18,353 nt of DNA from the NCBI GenBank assembly GCA_963977445.1, contig CAXBPH010000130.1, forward strand, positions 1 to 18,353, given 5' to 3'. This stretch comes from an uncultured bacterium (lineage in GTDB: Bacteria > Hydrogenedentota > Hydrogenedentia > Hydrogenedentales > JAEUWI01). The position numbers and the translations under genes are program-made. Positions within the stretch are counted from its first letter, which is position 1. Every line of letters begins with the position of its first letter. The notes below the pieces were generated by a model that was not told the DNA's origin, did no database searches, and was given only the letters and a program-made list of their open reading frames with translations. Shown one piece after another: positions 1,331-18,353 of this stretch.

Positions 1331-1936
1331 ATGTTTGCCTTTCTTCGTGGCACCGTAGCCATCAAATCGCTCGATCACATTGCCCTCGATGTGGGGGGGG
1401 TGGGTTATCAGGTGTCCGTTTCAGAACCGGTCTACCGCAAGCTTGCCATTCATCAGGAAGTGTTCCTCCTGACCTATTGCCACATCCGGGAGGAGTCGTT
1501 TCAGATATTCGGCTTCTTGAAGGAAGAGGAAAAGACCCTGTTCACCACCTTGTTGGGCATCAACAAGGTGGGGCCGAAAGTGGCCCTTGCGGTCCTTTCC
1601 GGCTTGTCGGTGCAGGCTTTTGGGCAGGCGGTGCTCGAAAACGATGTGAAAGCCTTCACAAAGATCTCCGGTATTGGCAAAGCCATGGGCCAGCGCATCG
1701 TCCTCGAGATGAAGACAAAACTCAAGCAGAACCCCGACCTGAACTCGATTATCGGCGAGCCCGAGGGTACGGACAGCGTCTCCGATGGTGACGATGCCTA
1801 TGAGGCTCTCCTATCTCTGGGGTGCACCCCCCAGGAAGCAAAAAAAGCGACCCTGGCCGCCCGGAAGAAGTTGGGGGACGGAGCCACCGATGAAGAGGTG
1901 GTCCGCGCTGCGCTACAATCGATGTCGAAGGTGTAA
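1331..1936 (+). CDS. ruvA: Holliday junction branch migration protein RuvA
   Basis: LDVGGVGYQV, HIREE...IFGF, LLGINKVGPKVALAVLS, two HhH motifs and C-terminal ALLSLG. Directly upstream of ruvB. Confidence 0.97.
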   Translation: MFAFLRGTVAIKSLDHIALDVGGVGYQVSVSEPVYRKLAIHQEVFLLTYCHIREESFQIFGFLKEEEKTLFTTLLGINKVGPKVALAVLSGLSVQAFGQAVLENDVKAFTKISGIGKAMGQRIVLEMKTKLKQNPDLNSIIGEPEGTDSVSDGDDAYEALLSLGCTPQEAKKATLAARKKLGDGATDEEVVRAALQSMSKV

Positions 1937-1942
1937 TTACCC

Positions 1943-2965
1943 ATGGCAAGCGACGAAACGATCAATCCCGAAATTCAAGGCGACGACACGCTCGCCGAGG
2001 AGCAAATCCGTCCCCAGCGGTTGGATGAGTTTCCTGGACAGGTGCCCCTTAAAGATAAATTGGCGATTGCCATTGCTGCGGCCAAGGGGCGCAACGAGCC
2101 ACTGGACCACATGCTCCTCAGCGGTCCGCCGGGATTGGGGAAGACCACCCTGGCCCGTATCCTGGCCAATGAAATGGGCGTTGATATCAAGCAGAGTTCC
2201 GGGCCGGTCATCGAACGTCAGGCTGATTTGTCGGCAATCCTGACCAGCCTGGAGTCCTTCGATGTTCTTTTCATCGACGAGATTCACCGGTTGAATCACG
2301 CGGTCGAAGAGACCCTCTACTCCGCCATGGAAGATTTTGAGGTCGATATCATGTTGGGCAAAGGGCCCACGGCCCGCTCCATGAAAATTGGCCTTAAACC
2401 CTTCACCCTCATTGGGGCCACGACCCGTTCCGGCCTGTTGACCCCGCCATTACGTGCCCGCTTCGGCGACACCTGCCGTTTCGAGTTCTACAGCCCGGCG
2501 GAACTGAAACATATTGTGTTGCGGGCCGCCCGCATTCTTGATGTGCCTATCGACGACGACGGTGCCCTCGAGATTGCGGCACGATCCCGGGGAACGGCCC
2601 GTGTGGCCAACCGTCTTCTTCGCCGTGTTCGAGACTATGCCCAGGTCAAGGGCGTAGGTATTATTACGCAGGAAATGGCCGATGCCGCTCTCGAATTGCT
2701 CCGCATCGACCGTCTGGGTCTGGACGATATGGACCGTAGTATCCTCCGAACCGCGATTGATAAATTTGGCGGTGGCCCGGTGGGGCTCTCCTCCCTTGCC
2801 GTGGCTGTGGGGGAAGAGCGTCAGACCCTCGAAGAGGTCCACGAACCCTATTTGATCCAACTCGGATTCATGAAGCGCACCCAGCAGGGCCGGGTCGCAA
2901 CCCCCCTGGCCTACAAGCATTTTGGCCTCAATACCCCGCAAACAATAGCCCCTGAGTTGTTTTAG
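1943..2965 (+). CDS. ruvB: Holliday junction branch migration DNA helicase RuvB
   Basis: IRPQRLDEF, Walker [10 protein letters not shown], Walker [38 protein letters not shown]. Confidence 0.98.
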
Positions 2966-8527: not shown

Positions 8528-8652
8528 TGAAGTTTCAGGCCGGCGTATCGGGTGCGCTATCTCCAGATACCAATCCCGGCGGGGTGTATACTGAAGATAC
8601 GTGCCCGTTGGATGGGGGCCGGACGCGACGAAACACGTCAGGGAGGCGAAGG

Positions 8653-9357
8653 ATGAAAAGGAGACGACGTTGGCTGCGGAATGGCTGTCTACTCGGCGTT
8701 CTTGTGCTCGTCGCCGTGTATTCCATCCATACTGCCCGTAGTGTCGTCGCCGAGTTTTTCCTTGTTGATTGTTCTGCTCTCGGAAGATCTGCGGGGTTGA
8801 GTCTCCAATTATATGCCTATGAATCGGAGGGGAGGTTTTTCCCACCACTGCGTAACCGGCAAGCCCCATTAACGGTAGACTCGAAATATTTGGTCCCTGC
8901 GTATTCGAGCGAGGAGAATTTTCATCAGACGTTCCGCTATCACGGGGTTAGCTCCGCCACCGGACAAGATTTCTACTATCTGGGTTACGCGGTCGAGAAC
9001 GAAGAAGAGATGGCGGCATTTGCTGCGGCATACGAACTAAGACGCGCTGAGGGCGGGGAGTTTACGGGAGACTTATCGGTGCCAACAGATAGGGAAGGCC
9101 ATGGGGGTCGTACAATCAAACGCTTGACCAAGCACACCGCCGAATCACGATCCATGGTGCCCCTTCTCATTGAGAAGTCTGGCCACTACCATCGTCCTGG
9201 CGGCTACGTTGTCTACACCGACGGTGCTGTGGAGTTTATCGTGTATCCTGGCAAATGGCCGATGAGCAAGGCGACGATGGATAGGTTGAAGACGCTCGAA
9301 GAGGTGATTTCAGTGAGCACGGCGTCGTCGGGCGAAATCGTTACGATGATTCCGTGA
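8653..9357 (+). CDS. DUF1559-like / H-X9-DG motif membrane-anchored protein
   Basis: GGAGG RBS. Basic N-terminus plus a TM segment, C...GLSLQLYAYES..FPPL, and C-terminal H-RPGGYVVYT-DG (exact H-X9-DG) followed by VEFIVYPGKWPM. Confidence 0.65.
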   Translation: MKRRRRWLRNGCLLGVLVLVAVYSIHTARSVVAEFFLVDCSALGRSAGLSLQLYAYESEGRFFPPLRNRQAPLTVDSKYLVPAYSSEENFHQTFRYHGVSSATGQDFYYLGYAVENEEEMAAFAAAYELRRAEGGEFTGDLSVPTDREGHGGRTIKRLTKHTAESRSMVPLLIEKSGHYHRPGGYVVYTDGAVEFIVYPGKWPMSKATMDRLKTLEEVISVSTASSGEIVTMIP

Positions 9358-9955
9358 TACGATCGACTTCCCGCTGGTAACAGTCGGGGCAGTAGCTGTG
9401 GGTAAAATCGGCCTGGGTGTGTTGGCTGATGTAGGCTTCCACCACATGCCAGAAGCCCTCATCGTCCCTTATTTTCTTACATTCTGCACAAATAGGAACC
9501 AAGCCGCGTAGCGTCTCGATATCATTGAGCGCTGTCTGCAACTGCTCAATGAGCGCGTCTTTCTCTGCTTCCCGTTCACGAACGGTACGTCGAAGCCGGG
9601 ACCGCTCGAGGGCATTTTGTACCGCCCGGCTGAGGTCCGATTCCCGCAAGTCGCTCTTCGTGAGATAGTCATCCGCACCGACTTGTAACGCTTTTACCGC
9701 CAATGCCTCGCTGCCCCGCGCCGTACAGACGACAACGGGCAACTGTTGCTCTACCAACTCGGGTATGAGCAGCGTGCCTTCGCCATCGGGGAGCCGAAAG
9801 TCCAGGAGCACGCAGTCTGGCTTGCTCAGTTGAATGGAGGTGCGGGCAGCACCCAAGGTGTCTGCAAACTGAATCGTGTAATCTTGACCGAGTAAACGCT
9901 CAATCGATTCTCGAAATACGTCATCGTCCTCTACAACTAATATTTTCACAGCCAT
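9341..9955 (-). CDS. response regulator: REC + coiled coil + C-terminal Cys/His-rich domain
   Basis: ILVVEDD, LLDFRLPDG, TARG, DYLTK receiver motifs. Tail LVPICAECKKIRDDEGFW..VEAYI..H....FTHSYCPDC. Confidence 0.9.
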   Translation of the reverse strand: MAVKILVVEDDDVFRESIERLLGQDYTIQFADTLGAARTSIQLSKPDCVLLDFRLPDGEGTLLIPELVEQQLPVVVCTARGSEALAVKALQVGADDYLTKSDLRESDLSRAVQNALERSRLRRTVREREAEKDALIEQLQTALNDIETLRGLVPICAECKKIRDDEGFWHVVEAYISQHTQADFTHSYCPDCYQREVDRITESS

Positions 9956-9966
9956 ACGTTGACCCC

Positions 9967-10377
9967 TTATCTAAATGTCACGATGCTGCAGTAATGACTC
10001 AGCATTCGCGTAGAATTGTCGAAATTTGCGTCCAATCCAGATTTCAGCAGATAGCCTGCAATCTGGAATTCATAGGCTTCCCGTCGGTCCGCCTCATTAC
10101 TTGAGGTCGTTAATACAAAAACGACGATATGTTTTAGCTTTGGATTGCCTCTGAGTTCTTTCAGAAATTCCAACCCACTCATCCGGGGTAACTTTAAATC
10201 CAGCAGAATGATAAAGGGCTCCGCCATGGGCGGCGGGGTCGTGCCACGTAATATGTCGAGGGCTTCGAGGCCGTCGGAAGCCCGGCGTACCGGGAAAGGT
10301 ACCTCAGCCTTGCTCAGGGCGCGACATACCCGCTCGGCCTCTACATCATCATCTTCTATGAGCAATACAGATACCAT
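9967..10377 (-). CDS. single-domain response regulator (Rcp1-like)
   Basis: VLLIEDD, DGLEAL, ILLDLKLPRMSGLEFLKELR, VFVLTTSS..DR..AY, GYLLK. AGGAGA RBS supports start 10377. Confidence 0.9.
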   Translation of the reverse strand: MVSVLLIEDDDVEAERVCRALSKAEVPFPVRRASDGLEALDILRGTTPPPMAEPFIILLDLKLPRMSGLEFLKELRGNPKLKHIVVFVLTTSSNEADRREAYEFQIAGYLLKSGLDANFDNSTRMLSHYCSIVTFR

Positions 10378-10517
10378 GCTTCTCCTGTCCCTACACGAAA
10401 TTAAGCGCCTCGTCCGAAACCGGATGTGTGCCCCTCCGAAATTTGGGCATATTTGGGTCAAATTCACCCAATTCGTGGCGATGTCGGCGCATAGGCCATT
10501 CTAATCACGTAATGGGA

Positions 10518-12020
10518 TTATACCCGAGAATCGATGGGCCAGGTAAATTCAAAGGTAGTTCCCTCACCGATCGTGGACGTAACCTGGATGGTCCCACCAC
10601 AGGCACCCAGTAATTTCTTAACAATGGCCAGGCCCATGCCACTGCCTTCTACCTTATCCCGGGGCTTCAATGTTTCGAATAACATGAATATTTTGTCGTG
10701 AAAATCGGGCGCGATCCCGGGGCCGTCGTCGGCGATGCGGAACACATAGTGGGTCGGCGAGGTCTCGCAACTGACCGTGATAGCACCATCCTCCCGATCG
10801 TGGTGCTTAATGGCATTTCCGATTAAGTTTAAGAATACCCGCCGGAGGGGCGTCTCGGCCGTCGTGAGCTGGGGGAGATCGTCTTGAATGTGAAAGTTAA
10901 ATTCTTTCGGCGGGTGCAGGGAATTTACGACTTCTTCTACCAATTCGTGGACATTTACCGGGTCCAGTGTCGTTTCCAGACGCCCGGCCCGTGAGTAGGC
11001 CAACAAATCATCCAGCAGTACTTTGAGGCGGGAGGCCCGCTGCTGGATCTGCTGCAGGTGGCGCTGAGAGGCTTCGGGCAGCAGGGCTGCCGCGTCTTCC
11101 TGGACCCAGCCCGCCAGGCTTTGTATGCCTTCAAGTGGCGTGCGAAGGTCGTGGGAGGCCACATAGGCGTATTCGTCGAGTTCCTGATTGCTGCGCTCTA
11201 ATTCGGCGGTATAGCGCGCCAGCGTCTCCTCCGCTTTTTTGCGCTCTGTAATATCGACGATAGTCGCCAGGACCAGGGTTCCTTCGTCGGATTCGATGGG
11301 ATTCAGGCCGATTTCTACGGGTATTTCTGTGCCATCCTTGCACTGACCGTAGAGGTCCCGTCCCCGTCCCATCGGGCGGGTTTCCGGTGCGGCCAGAAAC
11401 GCGTCACGATAGGCGGGGTGCGGTCCGTGGAGGTGAGCAGGTACCAGCACTTCAATATCCTGCCCCACCAATTCTCCCTGTTCATAGCCAAAAATAGTGT
11501 TACATACTGGGTTGGTGAGCACGATCTTGCCCTTATCATTCACGATTACAATGCCATTCGGAACGGATTCAATAACTTTGCGCAGTCGCTCCTCCGATTT
11601 CGTGATCGCTTCCAACGCCTTGTTCAATTCTGCGTTGACCGCTCCGAGTCCGGGCAATGACAAGGCTTTTGGGATGACCGGTATGAGGGCGAACACCGTG
11701 GCCCAGGACACAATGGCGGTAATAAGCTTAACAATCCCCGAAAGCCGATAACTGGGCCACCAGAAGATACCGGCATCCAGCAGGTGGGTCGTTCCACAAG
11801 AAAAAATAAACGCAGCGAAGAGCCAAAAGACAGGAAGGAAAGGGATATCTTTGCGTTTCAGGATGAAATAGGTCAACGTCGCTGGAATGGCCATGTAGGC
11901 ACCCCAGATCGCGGTATCGGAAATTATATGGAGCCAGCCATGACCTTCGCTCCAATTGCCACAATACCAACGGGCGGGGAAATCAGATGTATCGAACAGT
12001 TTCTCAAAAAACTCGACCAC
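10518..12020 (-). CDS. sensor histidine kinase with ETR1-type ethylene-binding domain, PAS, HisKA and HATPase domains
   Basis: Three-TM N-terminus SDTAIWGAYMAIP...FAAFIFSCGTTH. PAS-PAC. H-box AYVASHDLRTPL, N-box NLIGNAIKHH, G1 DDGPGI, G2 GSGMGL. GTG start with GGGAGA RBS. Confidence 0.92.
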   Translation of the reverse strand: MVEFFEKLFDTSDFPARWYCGNWSEGHGWLHIISDTAIWGAYMAIPATLTYFILKRKDIPFLPVFWLFAAFIFSCGTTHLLDAGIFWWPSYRLSGIVKLITAIVSWATVFALIPVIPKALSLPGLGAVNAELNKALEAITKSEERLRKVIESVPNGIVIVNDKGKIVLTNPVCNTIFGYEQGELVGQDIEVLVPAHLHGPHPAYRDAFLAAPETRPMGRGRDLYGQCKDGTEIPVEIGLNPIESDEGTLVLATIVDITERKKAEETLARYTAELERSNQELDEYAYVASHDLRTPLEGIQSLAGWVQEDAAALLPEASQRHLQQIQQRASRLKVLLDDLLAYSRAGRLETTLDPVNVHELVEEVVNSLHPPKEFNFHIQDDLPQLTTAETPLRRVFLNLIGNAIKHHDREDGAITVSCETSPTHYVFRIADDGPGIAPDFHDKIFMLFETLKPRDKVEGSGMGLAIVKKLLGACGGTIQVTSTIGEGTTFEFTWPIDSRV

Positions 12021-12166
12021 GGTACAGTCTCCCGAAACTGGGTAAAATACGATTCGGGAACTGGGGGAAGAAGATCCCCATTGCGCCGAAAGCCTGTCGA
12101 CGCATCTCCCGTTGTCCTTTACAGCCCATCTGCTCTGAGCCTATGGCCTGTGAAGACACACCTCAA

Positions 12167-12200
12167 TGTAGAGTCTACACCACTTGCAGGCGATTGCCAA
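12167..12200 (-). promoter_or_regulatory. candidate sigma70 promoter of the kinase operon with a palindrome over the -10
   Basis: Minus strand TTGGCA (12200-12195), 17 nt, TAGACT (12177-12172). Dyad TGTAGA-G-TCTACA at 12167-12179. Confidence 0.5.
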
Positions 12201-12221
12201 CCGGTGGGCGGGCAGACTGTC

Positions 12222-13784
12222 TTAGGCGTCGTGGTGCCGCATACGATCCAATACGTTGCGTGTAATTTGTTGTGCCCGCGGGTCGGGGCCCTGGGGCTCG
12301 GTATAGGTCGCCGGCCGAATGTAGCCCGGAGGCTCGGCGAGTCCATCGGCCCACCAGATTGTCGCGGCATTGAACACAATGTTGCCCTTTTTCCCGGGGT
12401 AAACCGTCGCTGCGTAGGTTCCTTCTGCGCTGCCCGTAGAGGCCGTGCCCGTGGCGACGACGCGAAGCCCGGGAATGTCTGCCGGGGCACCGTGCCACTC
12501 GAAGCCCACGAGTCCCGGAATGGCGTCCCCATTCTTCATGCCCGTACCATCGAAAATCCAGTGATCCTCGGCGCTACAGGTCCAGTCAGCGCCGCCGGAT
12601 ACGGGGTAGATATCCCGGCCACCAATCATGAGGGCCTGATCCGGTCCTTTGTGGGGCAGGGTAGCCACGGCGGGATACTTCTCACAGAGCACCTCGTCGA
12701 TGGGGCCGAAATGGTCAACCCGCGTGATGTGGCGGTGGGTGTGCCCGTTGCTATCCGACAGCAGGTCAATCATGCCCCAGCAGGTGTCCCCGGAAAAAAA
12801 GCCAGCACTCATCCCGTCGTTGATAGCCGCCATGACGTTGTCATACATGGTCCGGGTCCAGTATTCGTCGTGGCCCAGGGAAAGAAAGCCCTTTACACGT
12901 CGCAGGCCGGGTCCGTCGGCGTGGGTATCCAGATTGGAGGCATAGGTGACATCGTAGCCCTCTTGCTCCAGCCAATAGACCATGGGAAATTCCCACAGCA
13001 TAAACTCGCCCGATCCGATGGAGAGGGGGGTATCGACTACCTGACAATACTTGCCGTAGGGCCGATTGAAGCTGGTCGCCGTGCCTGCACCCAGGTACCA
13101 TTCGGAATTTCCATCGTCATAGAGGGCAAATTGATCGGGCCAGCGGTTGTAGGCATTCCACGTGGTATCGCTGCATTGAAACATGAAATCGGCACGACGA
13201 TCATCGCGAACGATAAAGATGACGTAACTCTGGAGGCCGTCTTTCTGCTCCGTCAGTTTTCCGACGTAAACACCACTTACCCAGTCTTCGGGAATGGTCA
13301 AGGTCGTGCTCGGCTCCCAGGCACAATCCCGGAGGCGCATATCGCCCACGTCGGGGTCGGGTTGGGTCTCACCACTAAATTCGCCGAGGCTCGTCATGTG
13401 ACGTCCACCCTTGCCGCCGTAGAAGCCCATACGGAAGATTTCCACGGTGAACGGTGCGGGCGGGTTGGTGGAGACCATGATAGATAGAGGTTCACCCGGC
13501 CGAACGGACGTGGCGCTGCAGTAACCTTCGATACGTGGACTGCGATATCGTGTGTCCGGGTCGATATGGGTCTTCGTCAGCAGCCATGCTGTGGTGCCTG
13601 TGATGGCGTTTTCTTTCTGGATTGCATTCAGGGTGGGCTGGGTGTCGGAAGTCGCTCCTGAAGCCTCGCTGGCGCCGCCAGTGACACCGAGCATACCGAG
13701 CCCCAACGCAGCGCCCTTCAACAGGTCTCGACGGCCCAGACCGTGGGGGAGAGGTGATTCAGCATCGGTGGGTGGTGGGGTCAT
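12222..13784 (-). CDS. Tat-exported N,N-dimethylformamidase beta-subunit-like protein (DUF6605-type)
   Basis: GRRDLLKG twin-arginine signal plus h-region. IEGY...SVRPGE, EIFRMGFYGG.GGR, W.SGVY..KL, TWNAYN.W, SFNRPY, WLEQEGYDVTY, GHDEYW. Confidence 0.8.
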   Translation of the reverse strand: MTPPPTDAESPLPHGLGRRDLLKGAALGLGMLGVTGGASEASGATSDTQPTLNAIQKENAITGTTAWLLTKTHIDPDTRYRSPRIEGYCSATSVRPGEPLSIMVSTNPPAPFTVEIFRMGFYGGKGGRHMTSLGEFSGETQPDPDVGDMRLRDCAWEPSTTLTIPEDWVSGVYVGKLTEQKDGLQSYVIFIVRDDRRADFMFQCSDTTWNAYNRWPDQFALYDDGNSEWYLGAGTATSFNRPYGKYCQVVDTPLSIGSGEFMLWEFPMVYWLEQEGYDVTYASNLDTHADGPGLRRVKGFLSLGHDEYWTRTMYDNVMAAINDGMSAGFFSGDTCWGMIDLLSDSNGHTHRHITRVDHFGPIDEVLCEKYPAVATLPHKGPDQALMIGGRDIYPVSGGADWTCSAEDHWIFDGTGMKNGDAIPGLVGFEWHGAPADIPGLRVVATGTASTGSAEGTYAATVYPGKKGNIVFNAATIWWADGLAEPPGYIRPATYTEPQGPDPRAQQITRNVLDRMRHHDA

Positions 13785-14848: not shown

Positions 14849-15319
14849 CTATTGGCCATCTTCGGCCGCCTCAATCAGCGTGTAGGCTTCTTGCGGGCCG
14901 ACCGACTTAATGAGTTTTATCAGAAGTTCTTCGCTTTCCAGGAGGTGTTGCACTCCACGAATCGCCTGAACTTCGCCCAGAAAATCCTTTTTGGGAACGA
15001 GGAGGAGTACGACGACTTTGGCGACCTTGTCATCCAACGACCGGAAGGGAATTCCCTTGGCCGAGATGCCAATCGTGCAAATTACGTCTTCCACCAGATC
15101 GGTTGCCAGATGGGGGACGGCTATGCCGCGGGCCATACCGGATCCCAGGGAGTCTTCATTGGCATAGAGACCATCAAGCAGTATACCGCGGTGCTTCATG
15201 GGCACATCGTGATATTGAATGAGGATATCCATCAATTCACTGATGGTTTCCCGCTTCTTTTCCGCGTCCAGTCCTATCTTGATAAGCTCGGGCCGCAATA
15301 TCTCATGTAACATTATCAT
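14849..15319 (-). CDS. PTS EIIA (fructose/mannitol/Ntr-type, PTS_EIIA_2) domain protein
   Basis: L.A..K.E.I.EL, GIAVPH phospho-His motif, GIPF.SLD...K.V.LL. Start overlaps the atpD stop (ATGA); an alternative start is 15313. Confidence 0.85.
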   Translation of the reverse strand: MIMLHEILRPELIKIGLDAEKKRETISELMDILIQYHDVPMKHRGILLDGLYANEDSLGSGMARGIAVPHLATDLVEDVICTIGISAKGIPFRSLDDKVAKVVVLLLVPKKDFLGEVQAIRGVQHLLESEELLIKLIKSVGPQEAYTLIEAAEDGQ

Positions 15320-16005
15320 TGGGCCTGCTCCTGTACGGCAGCCTTTTCTTTTGCTGCAGCCTGCGCCTTGCGCTTCTGAACGGCCTTCTTGCCCTTGATT
15401 TTCTTCAGGCGGAAGGTGTCTTCCCGCTCGCGTTCGTCCAGCACACTGGCAATACCCCGCATTTGGCCGCGCAAGCGGGGCAGGAGGTATTCTTCCAGCG
15501 CGTTGATACGGCGGGAGACTTTTTTCACTTCTTCACCCACTATCTGGAGGTTACGCTCCAGGGGGGCGCATATAAGGAGCTGGGCAAGCATGAGTTCCGA
15601 ACTTTCGGAGGCTTCCTGTACATGGGCGGACGTATCCAGCAGTCCCATGCCACGGGTCGATGGGGTGCGGACGACGCCGACCTGATCGATACGACCGAGG
15701 GGAAGGCCCCAGACTTTATCGGAGCCCACCTTCAAGTCAAGCTCACGGCGGCCAGCGACGGCGGCCGACTTGAGCTCGGGCGTACCCCGAACGGCACGGG
15801 CCATGGCAACGGCATCACCTGCCGCACGACCCCGTTCATGGAGCTCATCGCGCATGTCGCGAAGTTCACGAGCCCGCGTCAGCAATTCCTGCATCAGGGC
15901 GTCTCGTTTGCCCTTCAACAGACCCACCCCGTCGGAAGCCATTTTGATCTGGCCCTTCAGGAGGAGCATATTCATGCGTGTTGGCGCTATATTGTCCATA
16001 CTCAT
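15316..16005 (-). CDS. atpD: V/A-type ATP synthase subunit D
   Basis: PTRMNMLLLK, G..LLK.KRDAL..E, EVKKVSRRINALE..LLP, LDEREREDTFRLKKIK. Confidence 0.95.
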   Translation of the reverse strand: MSMDNIAPTRMNMLLLKGQIKMASDGVGLLKGKRDALMQELLTRARELRDMRDELHERGRAAGDAVAMARAVRGTPELKSAAVAGRRELDLKVGSDKVWGLPLGRIDQVGVVRTPSTRGMGLLDTSAHVQEASESSELMLAQLLICAPLERNLQIVGEEVKKVSRRINALEEYLLPRLRGQMRGIASVLDEREREDTFRLKKIKGKKAVQKRKAQAAAKEKAAVQEQAQ

Positions 16006-16102
16006 GGTTCAAAATCTCGTGTGAAGTTTGAGTTTAACGTGTTGCCACGTCAGACGGTGCTTCGATTGTATATTCAACGGCCCAACCGTGGGCTGATGAA
16101 AG

Positions 16103-16132
16103 GCCTGACAGGACTCAGGAGCCCTGTCAGGC
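16103..16132. repeat. intra-operon hairpin between subunits B and D
   Basis: GCCTGACAGG...CCTGTCAGGC 10-bp perfect arms. Only a short CTTTC tail on the transcribed (minus) strand. Confidence 0.6.
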
Positions 16133-16148
16133 AAACGTAACGACGTTA

Positions 16149-17597
16149 CTAGGCGTTTTCGATCGTCGATACCGCTTCTTTTTTCACGGTGGCGTTGGGA
16201 TCGATTGGCACGTAGAATTCTTCAACGGTTTCGCGCTTGATACGGGTCAGTTCGGACTTGGGCAGGTGACCCATGACCTTCCAACCGATGGCGAAAGTGT
16301 CTTCCATGGGACGACGGGTCATACCCTGTCCAATCATTTCCGCTTCGAATGCATTGGAGAAACGGAGATACTTCTTGTCGAGCTCTGTCAGGGCGTCTTC
16401 ACCCACGATGGCCATCAGCTTTTTGATACGCTGACCTTCGGCATAGGCGGCGTAGAGCTGGTTAGCCCATTCGCGGTGCCAGGGCTGTGTCTTGTTCTTG
16501 CCGATACCATTGTTCATGAGACGGGAAAGACAGGGCAGCAGGTCCACCGGCGGGAAGATACCCTGGCGGTGAAGGGGACGACTCAGTACGATCTGGCCCT
16601 CGGTGATATAACCGGTAAGGTCAGGAATGGGGTGCGTGATATCGTCATCCGGCATGGTAAGCATGGGGATCTGCGTTACCGAGCCACTGTTGCCACGGAT
16701 ACGACCGGCGCGTTCATAGATGGTCGACAAATCGGTGTACATGTAACCGGGATATCCACGACGTCCGGGAATTTCTTCACGGGCGGAGGAGATCTGACGG
16801 AGTGCGTCGCAATAGTTGGTCAAGTCGGTCAGTACGACGAGTACCTGGTATCCTTTTTCAAAGGCCAGGTATTCAGCGACCGTCAGGGCGCAACGGGGGG
16901 TGAAGAGTCGTTCAATCGCCGGATCATCCGCCTGATTGATAAACGCCACCACCTGGGATCCCTTACCGCCTTCTTCGAAGGCCTTCAGGAAGTACTCGGT
17001 CTCACGGGCGGTAATGCCCATGGCCGCAAACACCGTCACGAAAGGCGTGTCGTCGCCCTTGGTACCGGCGTTCTGCACGATCATGTTGGCGATTTCGTTA
17101 CCAGGAAGACCGGAGCCCAGGAAGATAGGAAGCTTCTGACCACGTACCAGGGTGTTGAACCCGTCGATGGTGGAGAGGCCGGTTTCGATAAAGTCATTAG
17201 GCGCATCGCGAGACACGGGATTAATGGCTGAACCACCGATTTCCACTTCCTTTTCCGGCACAACCGGGGGCAATCCGTCGATAGGTACGCCCGTTCCATT
17301 GAAACGGCGACCAATAACGTCAGGGGTACAGGCGACCTTGGCGGCGCTATCCTTGAGGGATACCGACGTGCCTTTGATATCGACACCACGTGTTCCCTGC
17401 AGAATCTGCAGTACGGCGTGGGTCTTGGTCGCTTCGAGGATCTGGCCCTGGCGCTGTTCACCGCTTTCCATGTGAACATTGAGGATAGCGCCCGTTGGGA
17501 AACGTTCACCATTCTCCAGAAAAACCAGGGGACCCGAAACATAGGTCATGTCCCAGTATTCTTTTTGGAGTGTTTCTTCGTTACTATTTTCAGACAT
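16149..17597 (-). CDS. atpB: V/A-type ATP synthase subunit B
   Basis: LVRGQKLPIF.GSGLP.NEIA, ADDPAIER..TPR.ALT.AEYLA, EEIPGRRGYPGYMYTDL..IYERAG, DITHPIPDLTGYITEGQI, LSRLM. Confidence 0.97.
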   Translation of the reverse strand: MSENSNEETLQKEYWDMTYVSGPLVFLENGERFPTGAILNVHMESGEQRQGQILEATKTHAVLQILQGTRGVDIKGTSVSLKDSAAKVACTPDVIGRRFNGTGVPIDGLPPVVPEKEVEIGGSAINPVSRDAPNDFIETGLSTIDGFNTLVRGQKLPIFLGSGLPGNEIANMIVQNAGTKGDDTPFVTVFAAMGITARETEYFLKAFEEGGKGSQVVAFINQADDPAIERLFTPRCALTVAEYLAFEKGYQVLVVLTDLTNYCDALRQISSAREEIPGRRGYPGYMYTDLSTIYERAGRIRGNSGSVTQIPMLTMPDDDITHPIPDLTGYITEGQIVLSRPLHRQGIFPPVDLLPCLSRLMNNGIGKNKTQPWHREWANQLYAAYAEGQRIKKLMAIVGEDALTELDKKYLRFSNAFEAEMIGQGMTRRPMEDTFAIGWKVMGHLPKSELTRIKRETVEEFYVPIDPNATVKKEAVSTIENA

Positions 17598-17614
17598 GGC
17601 AGTAATTCCCTGGG

Positions 17615-18353
17615 TTATTTGGCTTCAAGTGCGCCAAGGACCTGTTTGTAGTTTTCGATGCAGGCATCTTTCTTGGCCGTGAAGCCTTCATTCGGCTCTT
17701 CCTTAAGACGCGAAATTTCTTCACGAAGGGGGAGATCCGTGATGCGCGTCAAGGGAATTTCACGTTCAAGGACCTTCATGCACTCCTCGTGATAGACAAG
17801 GATCATCTCAAGAAGGCCGAAGCATTTATCCAAATCGCAGGCCGCGTCGTTTTCGGAAAACGCACTCTGTTGGAGGAATACTTCGCGAACCATACGGGAT
17901 ACTTCGAGGATAAGGCGTTCCTGATCCTGCAGGGCGTCGGGTCCGACCAACTGAACGATGTCATTCAATTCGTGTTCACGCTGAAGCAGCGAGGCTGCCT
18001 GCTGGCGACGTGCAATCCAGCCCGTCGGTGCGTTTTCTTCGAACCAGTCCTTGAGCCCTTCGAAATACAGGGTGAAACTGGTATTCCAGTTAACACTGGG
18101 ATAGTGACGACGGTAGGCCAGACCGGAATCCAGCGCCCAGAGGGCACCCGACACACGCATGGAGGTCTGGGTAACCGGTTCCGAGAAGTCACCACCGGGA
18201 GGGGACACGGCACCTACAGCGGTCAAGGAACCCTTACGGGGCTTGTCGCTCGTGGCTTCAGTACCGCAGCAAATCACGTTACCGCAACGTTCATAGAATG
18301 CAGCGATACGTTCGGAAAGGTAGGTTGGATAGCCTTCTTCACCGGGCATCTCT
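17615..18353 (-). CDS. atpA: V/A-type ATP synthase subunit A, C-terminal part (truncated by the window edge)
   Basis: EMPGEEGYPTYL..RIAAFYER.G, GAVSPPGGDFSEPVTQ, LAYRRHYPSVNW..S, IVQLVG.DAL, FLQQ.AF. Confidence 0.96.
   Translation of the reverse strand, partial: EMPGEEGYPTYLSERIAAFYERCGNVICCGTEATSDKPRKGSLTAVGAVSPPGGDFSEPVTQTSMRVSGALWALDSGLAYRRHYPSVNWNTSFTLYFEGLKDWFEENAPTGWIARRQQAASLLQREHELNDIVQLVGPDALQDQERLILEVSRMVREVFLQQSAFSENDAACDLDKCFGLLEMILVYHEECMKVLEREIPLTRITDLPLREEISRLKEEPNEGFTAKKDACIENYKQVLGALEAK

Follow-up and report, generated by a model that had tools for sequence, protein, structure and literature searches.

The stretch of DNA analyzed here (the window) comprises 18,353 nucleotides (nt) of contig CAXBPH010000130.1 in the GenBank assembly GCA_963977445.1, which derives from an uncultured bacterium of the phylum Hydrogenedentota. 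Analysis of its open reading frames (ORFs) revealed three intact, co-oriented ORFs on the minus strand, encoding a sensor histidine kinase (K) and two response regulators (R1 and R2), with 11 nt (9956-9966) between the stop of R1 and the start of R2, which confirmed the arrangement described in an earlier note on this sequence. With slightly better than even confidence, we read this locus as a branched two-component pathway, in which an ethylene-type kinase would feed both R1 and an effector, R2, that carries a predicted dimeric four-cysteine (Cys4) clasp. The genes and their domains (residues in amino acids, aa) are as follows.

10518..12020, minus strand: K, a 500-aa sensor histidine kinase with ETR1_N, PAS, HisKA, and HATPase_c domains; the phospho-accepting His is H290
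9967..10377, minus strand: R1, an Rcp1-type stand-alone receiver of 136 aa
9341..9955, minus strand: R2, a 204-aa response regulator composed of a receiver, a helix, and a Cys4 module
11655..11942, minus strand: ETR1_N transmembrane domain of K (aa 27-122; Pfam PF25487), with D35, Y42, I45, P46, I72, C75, H79, and K98
11241..11591, minus strand: PAS domain of K (aa 144-260), whose solved relatives are haem PAS oxygen sensors
10533..11171, minus strand: transmitter of K (HisKA, aa 284-345; HATPase_c, aa 389-496), of the Cph1/bacteriophytochrome class
9365..9565, minus strand: helical linker (R2 aa ~131-151) and Cys4/His/Trp module (aa ~152-197), with invariant C156, C159, W169, H186, C189, and C192

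The kinase and the receivers

The start codon of K is GTG, and the resulting N-terminus, MVEFFEKLFDTSDFP..., agrees with the N-termini of its homologues. The transmembrane domain matches PF25487 with 126.7 bits (cut-off 27) over profile positions 2-97 of 97, an assignment confirmed in the genome search. C75 and H79, one turn apart in helix II, occupy the position of the copper-ligand pair and, like D35 in helix I and K98 in helix III, are invariant in 14 homologues, in which Y42, I45, P46, and I72 are invariant or at least 90% conserved. In 2006, Wang et al. reportedly identified seven ETR1 residues that are needed for binding, including Y32, I35, P36, and I62; the residues Y42, I45, P46, and I72 of K presumably represent these remaining binding residues at an offset of +10. 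To our knowledge, ethylene perception by bacteria has been shown in two organisms only. D35, C75, H79, and K98 bear identical residue numbers in K and in AzoEtr1 of Azospirillum brasilense, and the AzoEtr1 report equates them with D25, C65, H69, and K91 of ETR1 and states that the first 130 residues of AzoEtr1 bind 14C-ethylene (PMC11819568). The roles of Asp25 and Lys91 in ETR1 are described in a further study (PMC10266040).

The PAS domain that follows ETR1_N resembles haem-based sensors, and 14 of its 15 PDB matches are FixL or DosP. H201 and R221 of K align gaplessly with the proximal His and the distal Arg of FixL from B. japonicum, and in PDB 1y28, the R220A mutant of FixL, an Ala stands in the alignment column of R221. 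When 47 PAS domains from ETR1_N proteins were aligned, 33 were found to retain the His and 29 the Arg. Haem binding by the PAS domain of K is possible. The FixL-like character of this domain is a feature that the earlier note did not contain.

It is conceivable, though we hold it only as a tentative alternative, that K is not an ethylene sensor, and that ETR1_N reports copper or another small unsaturated or gaseous ligand, or that the PAS domain is the actual sensor, of O2, NO, or CO via haem. The assignment of ethylene as the probable ligand of K derives only from conserved residues, and this point counts for the alternative, together with the haem oxygen sensors among the solved PAS relatives, the aligned and conserved proximal His and distal Arg, and the wide distribution of ETR1_N in Planctomycetota, Verrucomicrobiota, and Myxococcota, where it occurs in many architectures. 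However, other haem-pocket columns, which we take to be those of FixL R206 and I215, hold Ala and Pro in K in the gapless alignment. K also retains all of the ethylene-binding residues, and SynEtr1 and AzoEtr1, which are all of the bacterial ETR1_N proteins tested so far with these residues, bound ethylene (PMC11819568, PMC10266040). An ethylene-type kinase is kept as the input of the proposed pathway below.

The transmitter of K has bacteriophytochrome kinases as its best solved relatives (E 9e-32; PDB ranks 1, 2, 6, and 7), and the kinase-core motif quoted in the earlier note, ELERSNQELDEYAYVASHDL, is present at aa 273-292. R1 consists of a Response_reg domain only (Pfam), and its key residues are the acidic pocket E8-D11, the phospho-acceptor D60, T90/T91, and K112. 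The top 12 solved relatives of R1, which include RcpA, RcpB, Rcp1, and one chain of a bacteriophytochrome-receiver fusion, match with E-values of 5e-18 to 5e-12, and the next match follows at 1e-7, leaving a gap of about five orders of magnitude to all other receivers. The start of R1 is placed at the ATG at 10377, which is preceded by AGGAGA and at which the orthologue alignments also begin; a longer start (GTG at 10467) found no support in these alignments and was rejected. In R2, Response_reg covers aa 5-101, with nothing further above the Pfam threshold, and the receiver residues are D10, D52, T78, and K100, of which D10, D52, and K100 fall in invariant columns. All of the catalytic residues of the kinase and both receivers are present. 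No helix-turn-helix (HTH), winged-helix, AAA+, GGDEF, EAL, or HD-GYP output was recognized in R1 or R2 by Pfam and NCBIfam, which agrees with the statement of the earlier note that neither regulator has an HTH, GGDEF, or EAL output. The NCBIfam matches were receiver-only and far below the cut-offs for R1 and R2, and sub-threshold kinase matches were obtained for K.

The best solved relatives of the transmitter and R1 are the Cph1/Rcp1 and bacteriophytochrome pairs (PDB 1i3c, 1k68, 1k66, 8avv, and 8uph), in which, as in K and R1, a single-domain receiver is encoded beside the kinase, and the Cph1/Rcp1 class that the earlier note had given to the kinase and the first regulator is thereby borne out. 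In contrast to Cph1, K is without the PAS-GAF-PHY arrangement. No GAF or PHY domain was found in K by Pfam, only ETR1_N and one PAS domain precede the transmitter, the input is a membrane ETR1_N with a FixL-like PAS domain, and the second receiver protein R2 is added. Since K lacks the bilin-binding photosensory module of phytochromes, its likeness to phytochrome systems is confined to the class of the transmitter and the receiver. The phytochrome-style relay with a gas input that had been proposed therefore holds for the transmitter and receiver class and for the ETR1_N input, but not for a photosensory module.

The closest described system is AzoEtr1/AzoRR(etr1) of A. brasilense. According to its report (PMC11819568), AzoEtr1 has the same order of ethylene-type domain, PAS, and histidine kinase (525 aa, compared with 500 aa in K), and AzoRR is an output-less receiver of 135 aa encoded beside the kinase (R1 has 136 aa). 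Because AzoEtr1 shares this build and has an adjacent output-less receiver, K and R1 are of an already known and tested kind, and the locus is not the undescribed system for which the earlier note considered it a candidate, at least as far as the core of a kinase and an output-less receiver is concerned (PMC11819568). The two loci differ in that a second regulator, R2, with its Cys4 module, is added here, that the genes of the kinase and the first receiver overlap in Azospirillum but are separated by a 140-nt spacer here (PMC11819568), and that the host is a member of the Hydrogenedentota, whereas AzoEtr1 comes from a plant-associated proteobacterium. Compared with SynEtr1 (UirS)/slr1213 of Synechocystis, the locus differs in containing no known DNA-binding domain.

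The C-terminal module of R2

The 74-aa C-terminus of R2 matches no Pfam or NCBIfam family at E <= 10 except for sub-threshold zinc-ribbon noise. A phmmer search with this segment against 1.84 billion representative proteins retrieved 20,908 proteins at E <= 1e-3, or 15,131 with the threshold set to 1e-10. The position of the module is at, or close to, the C-terminus in most of the 150 best matches, some of which carry two copies; it follows a helix, and the domain identity is 50-65% in matches of mostly unassigned taxon. A Pfam scan was made of 93 of these 150 carriers, of which 13 have receivers, 13 have no family, and one has only a marginal zinc-ribbon match on the module itself. The remaining scanned carriers contain PAS, GAF, MASE1/3/6, HisKA_7TM, CHASE3/4/5, dCache, HAMP, Reg_prop, and similar sensors, and a kinase, GGDEF, EAL, HD, or HTH domain was found in none of the 93. 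The ESM Atlas contains the same kinds of carriers. The genome to which the window belongs encodes nine full copies of the module, which are carried by three receivers, two PAS proteins, one GAF protein, and three 7TMR-DISM proteins, all with a nearly identical surface motif. No description of the module was found in the literature, with ~1.7 million PMC articles and the subscription journals lying outside the search.

Two further observations concern the same genome. Three short ORFs (55-95 aa) on contigs C118, C115, and C270 encode a reduced CCxCKK...W...SHxYCPxC motif that matches the module weakly (E 1e-4 to 1e-2). Contig C10 (L141 4692-5624, minus strand) encodes a 311-aa protein with a PAS domain, a central Cys4 module, and a C-terminal acyl-CoA-binding (ACBP) domain, a rare instance of a non-terminal module.

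Two AF2 models of the module (pLDDT 83 and 90) consist of two short hairpins and two helices. Foldseek against the PDB, with models with and without the helix, gave no significant fold match (best E 2.1 for both), and in wide VIA-align searches the best Z was 2.2 for one model, whereas the other matched none of 48,161 chains at Z >= 2. When the module was modelled as a homodimer together with two Zn, the ipSAE reached 0.51, compared with 0.00 for the best control, with a partner pLDDT of at least 81 and agreement between runs in 100% of contacts. This passes the mark set for the score, as do 20 of 30 proteins with structures solved as pairs and 1 of 23 with structures solved as single chains; the calibration behind the mark excludes the author-made alignment and the accompanying zinc ligand, both used here, so that the dimer is to be read as a prediction. 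The contacts with the lowest error join C26 and C29 (C156 and C159 of R2) of one chain to C59 and C62 (C189 and C192 of R2) of the other. Most of the conserved residues of the module, as well as K30, K31, and R33 (module numbering), lie inside the predicted interface. The modelling supports a dimeric Cys4 module with metal sites at the interface, and the metal is probably zinc.

Two known domains invite comparison with the module. The dimerization domain of PerR/Fur (PDB 2fe3 and 4i7h) has two CxxC pairs as a structural metal site, as predicted for the Cys4 module, and PerR occupied the top Foldseek rows, which were non-significant (E 2.1, TM 0.26); VIA-align gave no such match at Z >= 2, and a sequence relationship was not found. 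The REC-HalOD2 proteins of haloarchaea (PF18547) resemble R2 in combining a receiver, a helix, and two CXXC motifs predicted to bind zinc (PMC5847659). However, the 74-aa C-terminus of R2 has no match to PF18547 at E <= 10, and the Cys4 module has an extra invariant Trp and His compared with HalOD2. The two also differ in distribution, since HalOD2 was described from 14 proteins of halobacteria (PMC5847659), whereas 20,908 representative clusters with many types of sensors were found for the Cys4 module.

R2 might instead be an ordinary transcription (or RNA) regulator and its module a new zinc-ribbon binder of nucleic acid, in which case the cassette would be a normal two-component system whose DNA-binding output has escaped recognition; we consider this unlikely. 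In its favour, the module has a pair of CxxC knuckles formed with beta-hairpins, the first of which is followed by the basic stretch K-K-(I/V)-R; response regulators are dimeric as a rule; and the archaeal HalOD2, in which a helix precedes two CXXC motifs spaced 20-25 residues from each other, has been proposed as a DNA or RNA binder (PMC5847659). However, many carriers of the module are integral membrane sensors (7TMR-DISM, MASE1, HisKA_7TM, and CHASE types), nine paralogues in one genome with almost identical candidate contact residues fit poorly with separate regulons, and K30, K31, and R33 of the module lie within the predicted dimer interface. Moreover, neither HalOD2 nor a DNA-binding family was matched even at E <= 10, and no solved DNA-binding fold was matched. 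The module could still bind nucleic acid, and the post-translational action suggested in the earlier note is accordingly an inference only.

It would also be somewhat surprising, but conceivable, if the module were a structural zinc clasp keeping the protein dimeric, or a thiol/metal redox switch, and the receiver, PAS, or GAF domain itself did the signalling, e.g., by feedback on the kinase or on R1. The dimer model, which puts the metal sites and most of the conserved residues at the interface, would suit such a clasp, as would the PerR Zn(Cys)4 dimerization region in the best, non-significant Foldseek rows (E 2.1) and the lack of a conserved partner gene nearby; according to Galperin et al. 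(PMC5847659), receiver-attached domains may act simply through dimerization. In contrast, the module occupies the position of a transmitter or GGDEF domain after a signalling-type helix, in proteins otherwise without output (none of the 93 scanned carriers has a known one), and in the sister cassettes described below (Phycisphaerae L065 and L132; C95) a kinase transmitter takes the same position. A domain identity of 50-65%, in mostly taxon-unassigned matches, is also high for a mere clasp. An effector function of R2 is retained in the proposed pathway.

Conservation and surroundings of the triad

The order K-R1-R2 is kept in six of the eight other genomes of the same genus (G001, G003, G004, G006, G007, and G008), so that the arrangement is conserved in relatives, as the earlier note had required of it. 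In these six genomes the orthologues share 63-70% (K), 51-57% (R1), and 49-66% (R2) identity with the genes of the window. No ETR1_N match was obtained in the other two, G002 and G005 (91 and 94% completeness). In G004 the ETR1_N-PAS kinase is tandemly duplicated upstream of R1/R2 (locus L038, G004:C29). The flanking genes, which encode a xylose-isomerase-like protein, a DMFA2_C protein, YebC, and an oxidoreductase of the GFO type, are 77-95% identical at the orthologous loci, with the exception of the GFO-type oxidoreductase of G004, a 60% match. Because the flanks are 77-95% identical and the triad is only 49-70% identical, the triad evolves faster than its surroundings. With the order kept in six of the eight genomes, selection acts on the triad as a unit. 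Two further genera of the family (G010 and G011) and locus L134 of a metagenome-assembled genome (MAG) have a receiver-Cys4 gene directly behind an ETR1_N kinase that lacks PAS, and R1 is missing from this position.

All three receiver-Cys4 genes of the window's own genome sit in cassettes of a kinase, an Rcp-like receiver, and a receiver-Cys4 protein:

Contig C130 (the window): ETR1_N-PAS kinase, R1, R2
Contig C48 (L142 2597-5559): CHASE8-HAMP kinase, 144-aa receiver, 202-aa receiver-Cys4 protein
Contig C102 (L145 2692-5731): CHASE kinase, 153-aa receiver, 228-aa receiver-Cys4 protein

The intergenic distances in the C48 and C102 cassettes are 0-20 nt. The first receivers of the three cassettes are mutual best matches with 36-39% identity, the second receivers are mutual best matches with 33-37% identity, and one type of H-box is common to all of the cassette kinases. 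A second ETR1_N kinase (427 aa, no PAS) is encoded on contig C95 (14369-20337, L152) and is followed by an Rcp-like receiver; the place of R2 is taken there by a 1012-aa receiver-PAS-hybrid kinase and a receiver-HD-GYP protein, a layout that recurs in G007 and G003. A related layout occurs at Phycisphaerae loci, where ETR1_N is split off as a protein of its own and is accompanied by a large PAS kinase, a receiver resembling R1 (124-127 bits), and a receiver-kinase. From the comparison of these sister cassettes it follows that the stable core consists of a Cph1-type transmitter, an Rcp-type receiver, and a second receiver protein, and the sensor and the last output of the cassette are exchangeable.

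In the Phycisphaerae MAG loci L065, L132, and L070, ETR1_N forms a separate protein of 214-229 aa directly upstream of a large membrane PAS kinase whose PAS-transmitter part is closely similar to K, and the genes of an R1-like receiver and a receiver-kinase come next. This arrangement represents a split form of the receptor.

That K, R1, and R2 are chance neighbours and do not belong to one pathway might be argued from the 140-nt gap between K and R1 and from the uninformative promoter and terminator scans, but it is highly improbable, since the order is kept in six of eight genomes of the genus despite the faster evolution of the triad than of its flanks, two more cassettes of this kind, with other sensors, are present in the same genome, and a kinase and a receiver-Cys4 gene are adjacent in two further genera.

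Two non-coding features accompany the three genes:

10378..10517, minus strand: spacer of 140 nt between K and R1
12172..12200, minus strand: candidate promoter with sigma-70-like hexamers TTGGCA-17-TAGACT, inside the 201-nt gap upstream of K; weak

The spacer matched no Rfam family, and in the orthologues its length is very roughly 50 to 190 nt, as estimated from the ends of the matches. The earlier note had credited the genes with a candidate promoter of their own; one sigma-70-like match does exist, but a single match in 9000-12400, compared with 2.2 +/- 1.5 in shuffles, is not above chance. The scan of the minus strand 3' of R2 found no terminator-like site, and the Rfam and tRNA scans of the window found nothing.

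Convergent with R2, a 257-aa ORF (8584-9357, plus strand) overlaps its 3' end by 17 nt. This ORF has no Pfam family and no counterpart at the same position in the six orthologous loci. It is a member of a multi-copy family: related genomes contain as many as 21 matches each, and these often form tandem repeats within open frames of ~1000 aa. On the other side, 201 nt upstream of K, lies the gene of the DMFA2_C (N,N-dimethylformamidase beta-subunit-like) protein (520 aa, 12222-13784, minus strand), which has a twin-arginine-like N-terminus; it occupies the same place in four of the six orthologous loci, and no match was found in the stretch of G004 that was examined. The wider context in the window is of a housekeeping nature, with RuvA and RuvB and the subunits D, B, and A of a V/A-type ATPase (1331-2965, plus strand, and 15316-18349, minus strand).

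A proposed branched pathway

For the pathway proposed above, the order of the genes, their domains, the conserved sensor residues, the conservation of the cassette and its reuse with other sensors, and the distribution of the module are direct observations, whereas we infer that ethylene is the ligand, that phosphate is transferred to R1 as well as R2, what part R1 plays, that the module binds metal and dimerizes, and what kind of target it has. K would be a membrane kinase with a copper-dependent three-helix domain of the ethylene-receptor type and a cytoplasmic FixL-like PAS domain, and may integrate the state of the ethylene/copper site and perhaps also that of a haem PAS. It would autophosphorylate on H290, as is known for the family, and pass the phosphate to both downstream receivers. 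R1 would most likely be a competing phosphate acceptor (sink) or a modulator, and R2 most likely the effector, with the helix joining its receiver to the module. The modules are predicted to pair as a symmetric dimer with metal sites, probably zinc, at the interface, and a phosphorylation-driven pairing of the receivers may alter the geometry of this dimeric clasp. As a guess at the output, we suggest that a shared partner protein docks in a manner that depends on conformation, in preference to a sequence-specific interaction with DNA; docking is preferred because many carriers are membrane sensors and because the paralogues share their surface.

A wider form of this proposal, which we put forward with much less assurance, is that the Cys4 module represents a new class of output, a zinc-clasped dimer that would relay the state of more than 20,000 sensor and receiver families to a shared target. 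The cassettes of the Hydrogenedentota would then be a compact and genetically defined version of this route, in which the sensor of the present locus may read ethylene (through copper) as well as O2, NO, or CO (through a haem PAS).

Several observations weigh against the branched pathway or its generality. In addition to the chance-level promoter match, the limits of the dimer calibration, and the basis of the ethylene assignment already mentioned, most of the conserved residues of the module lie in the predicted interface, and therefore conservation alone demands no external partner. A search for target genes, covering three genes on each side of receiver-Cys4 genes in the 80 metagenome loci that contained the motif, with all-against-all BLAST, found no recurrent non-signalling neighbour, and the only recurrent cluster was one of kinases and receivers (63 members in 39 loci); the neighbours of the nine module copies in the window's own genome likewise included no recurrent non-signalling gene. 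A survey covered 80 ETR1_N loci, each with flanks of 6 kb, from a wide range of phyla; 77 of them were without a Cys4 gene, and two of the three with one were Hydrogenedentota contigs that had already been found. The suggestion in the earlier note that the triad could be looked for around ethylene-domain kinases in general thus led to a lineage-specific arrangement, with a Cys4 gene in 3 of 80 loci. At E <= 1e-8, the Cys4 module is absent from three of five planctomycete genomes that encode ETR1_N kinases. The link accordingly fails outside the Hydrogenedentota family, and the Cys4 module is therefore dispensable for signalling from an ETR1_N sensor. R1 is not a general component either, since, of the 58 metagenome loci in which the sequence upstream of a receiver-Cys4 gene extends over 700 nt or more, four have a receiver-only ORF directly upstream, and two of these ORFs are clearly of the R1 type.

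In the same 58 loci, the gene directly upstream encodes a kinase or a hybrid kinase in 24 and neither a kinase nor a receiver in 30. The hidden Markov models (HMMs) for these scans were built from 3-4 sequences and miss divergent receivers and kinases that are not of the Cph1 type, and the counts of loci with none upstream are therefore upper bounds. Because 24 of the 58 lie directly behind a kinase or hybrid kinase, receiver-Cys4 proteins are regular partners of kinases, and the interposed R1 and the ethylene-type sensor are, as far as these surveys indicate, specialities of the Hydrogenedentota lineage. ETR1_N itself is very widespread in Planctomycetota, Verrucomicrobiota, and Myxococcota. 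A motif search found no fusion of ETR1_N and Cys4 among 120 ETR1_N proteins or 150 Cys4 proteins. Four short ETR1_N-PAS proteins were considered as candidates for such a fusion and were rejected, since they proved to be truncated or frameshifted.

If the module were a plain dimerization clasp or a DNA-binding finger, the locus would be an ordinary variant of a two-component system. On the reading preferred here, it represents the same kind of ethylene-type receptor as in the known bacterial systems, hard-wired to a second regulator in one lineage, and the FixL-like PAS domain raises the idea that some ethylene-type receptors may integrate a second gas. The tail of R2 is among the largest unannotated signalling modules measured, with 20,908 representative clusters. 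The reuse of the cassette with three sensors provides a defined set of proteins that could reveal the role of the module everywhere, and the main value of the locus lies in this defined handle on a very large, unannotated signalling module.

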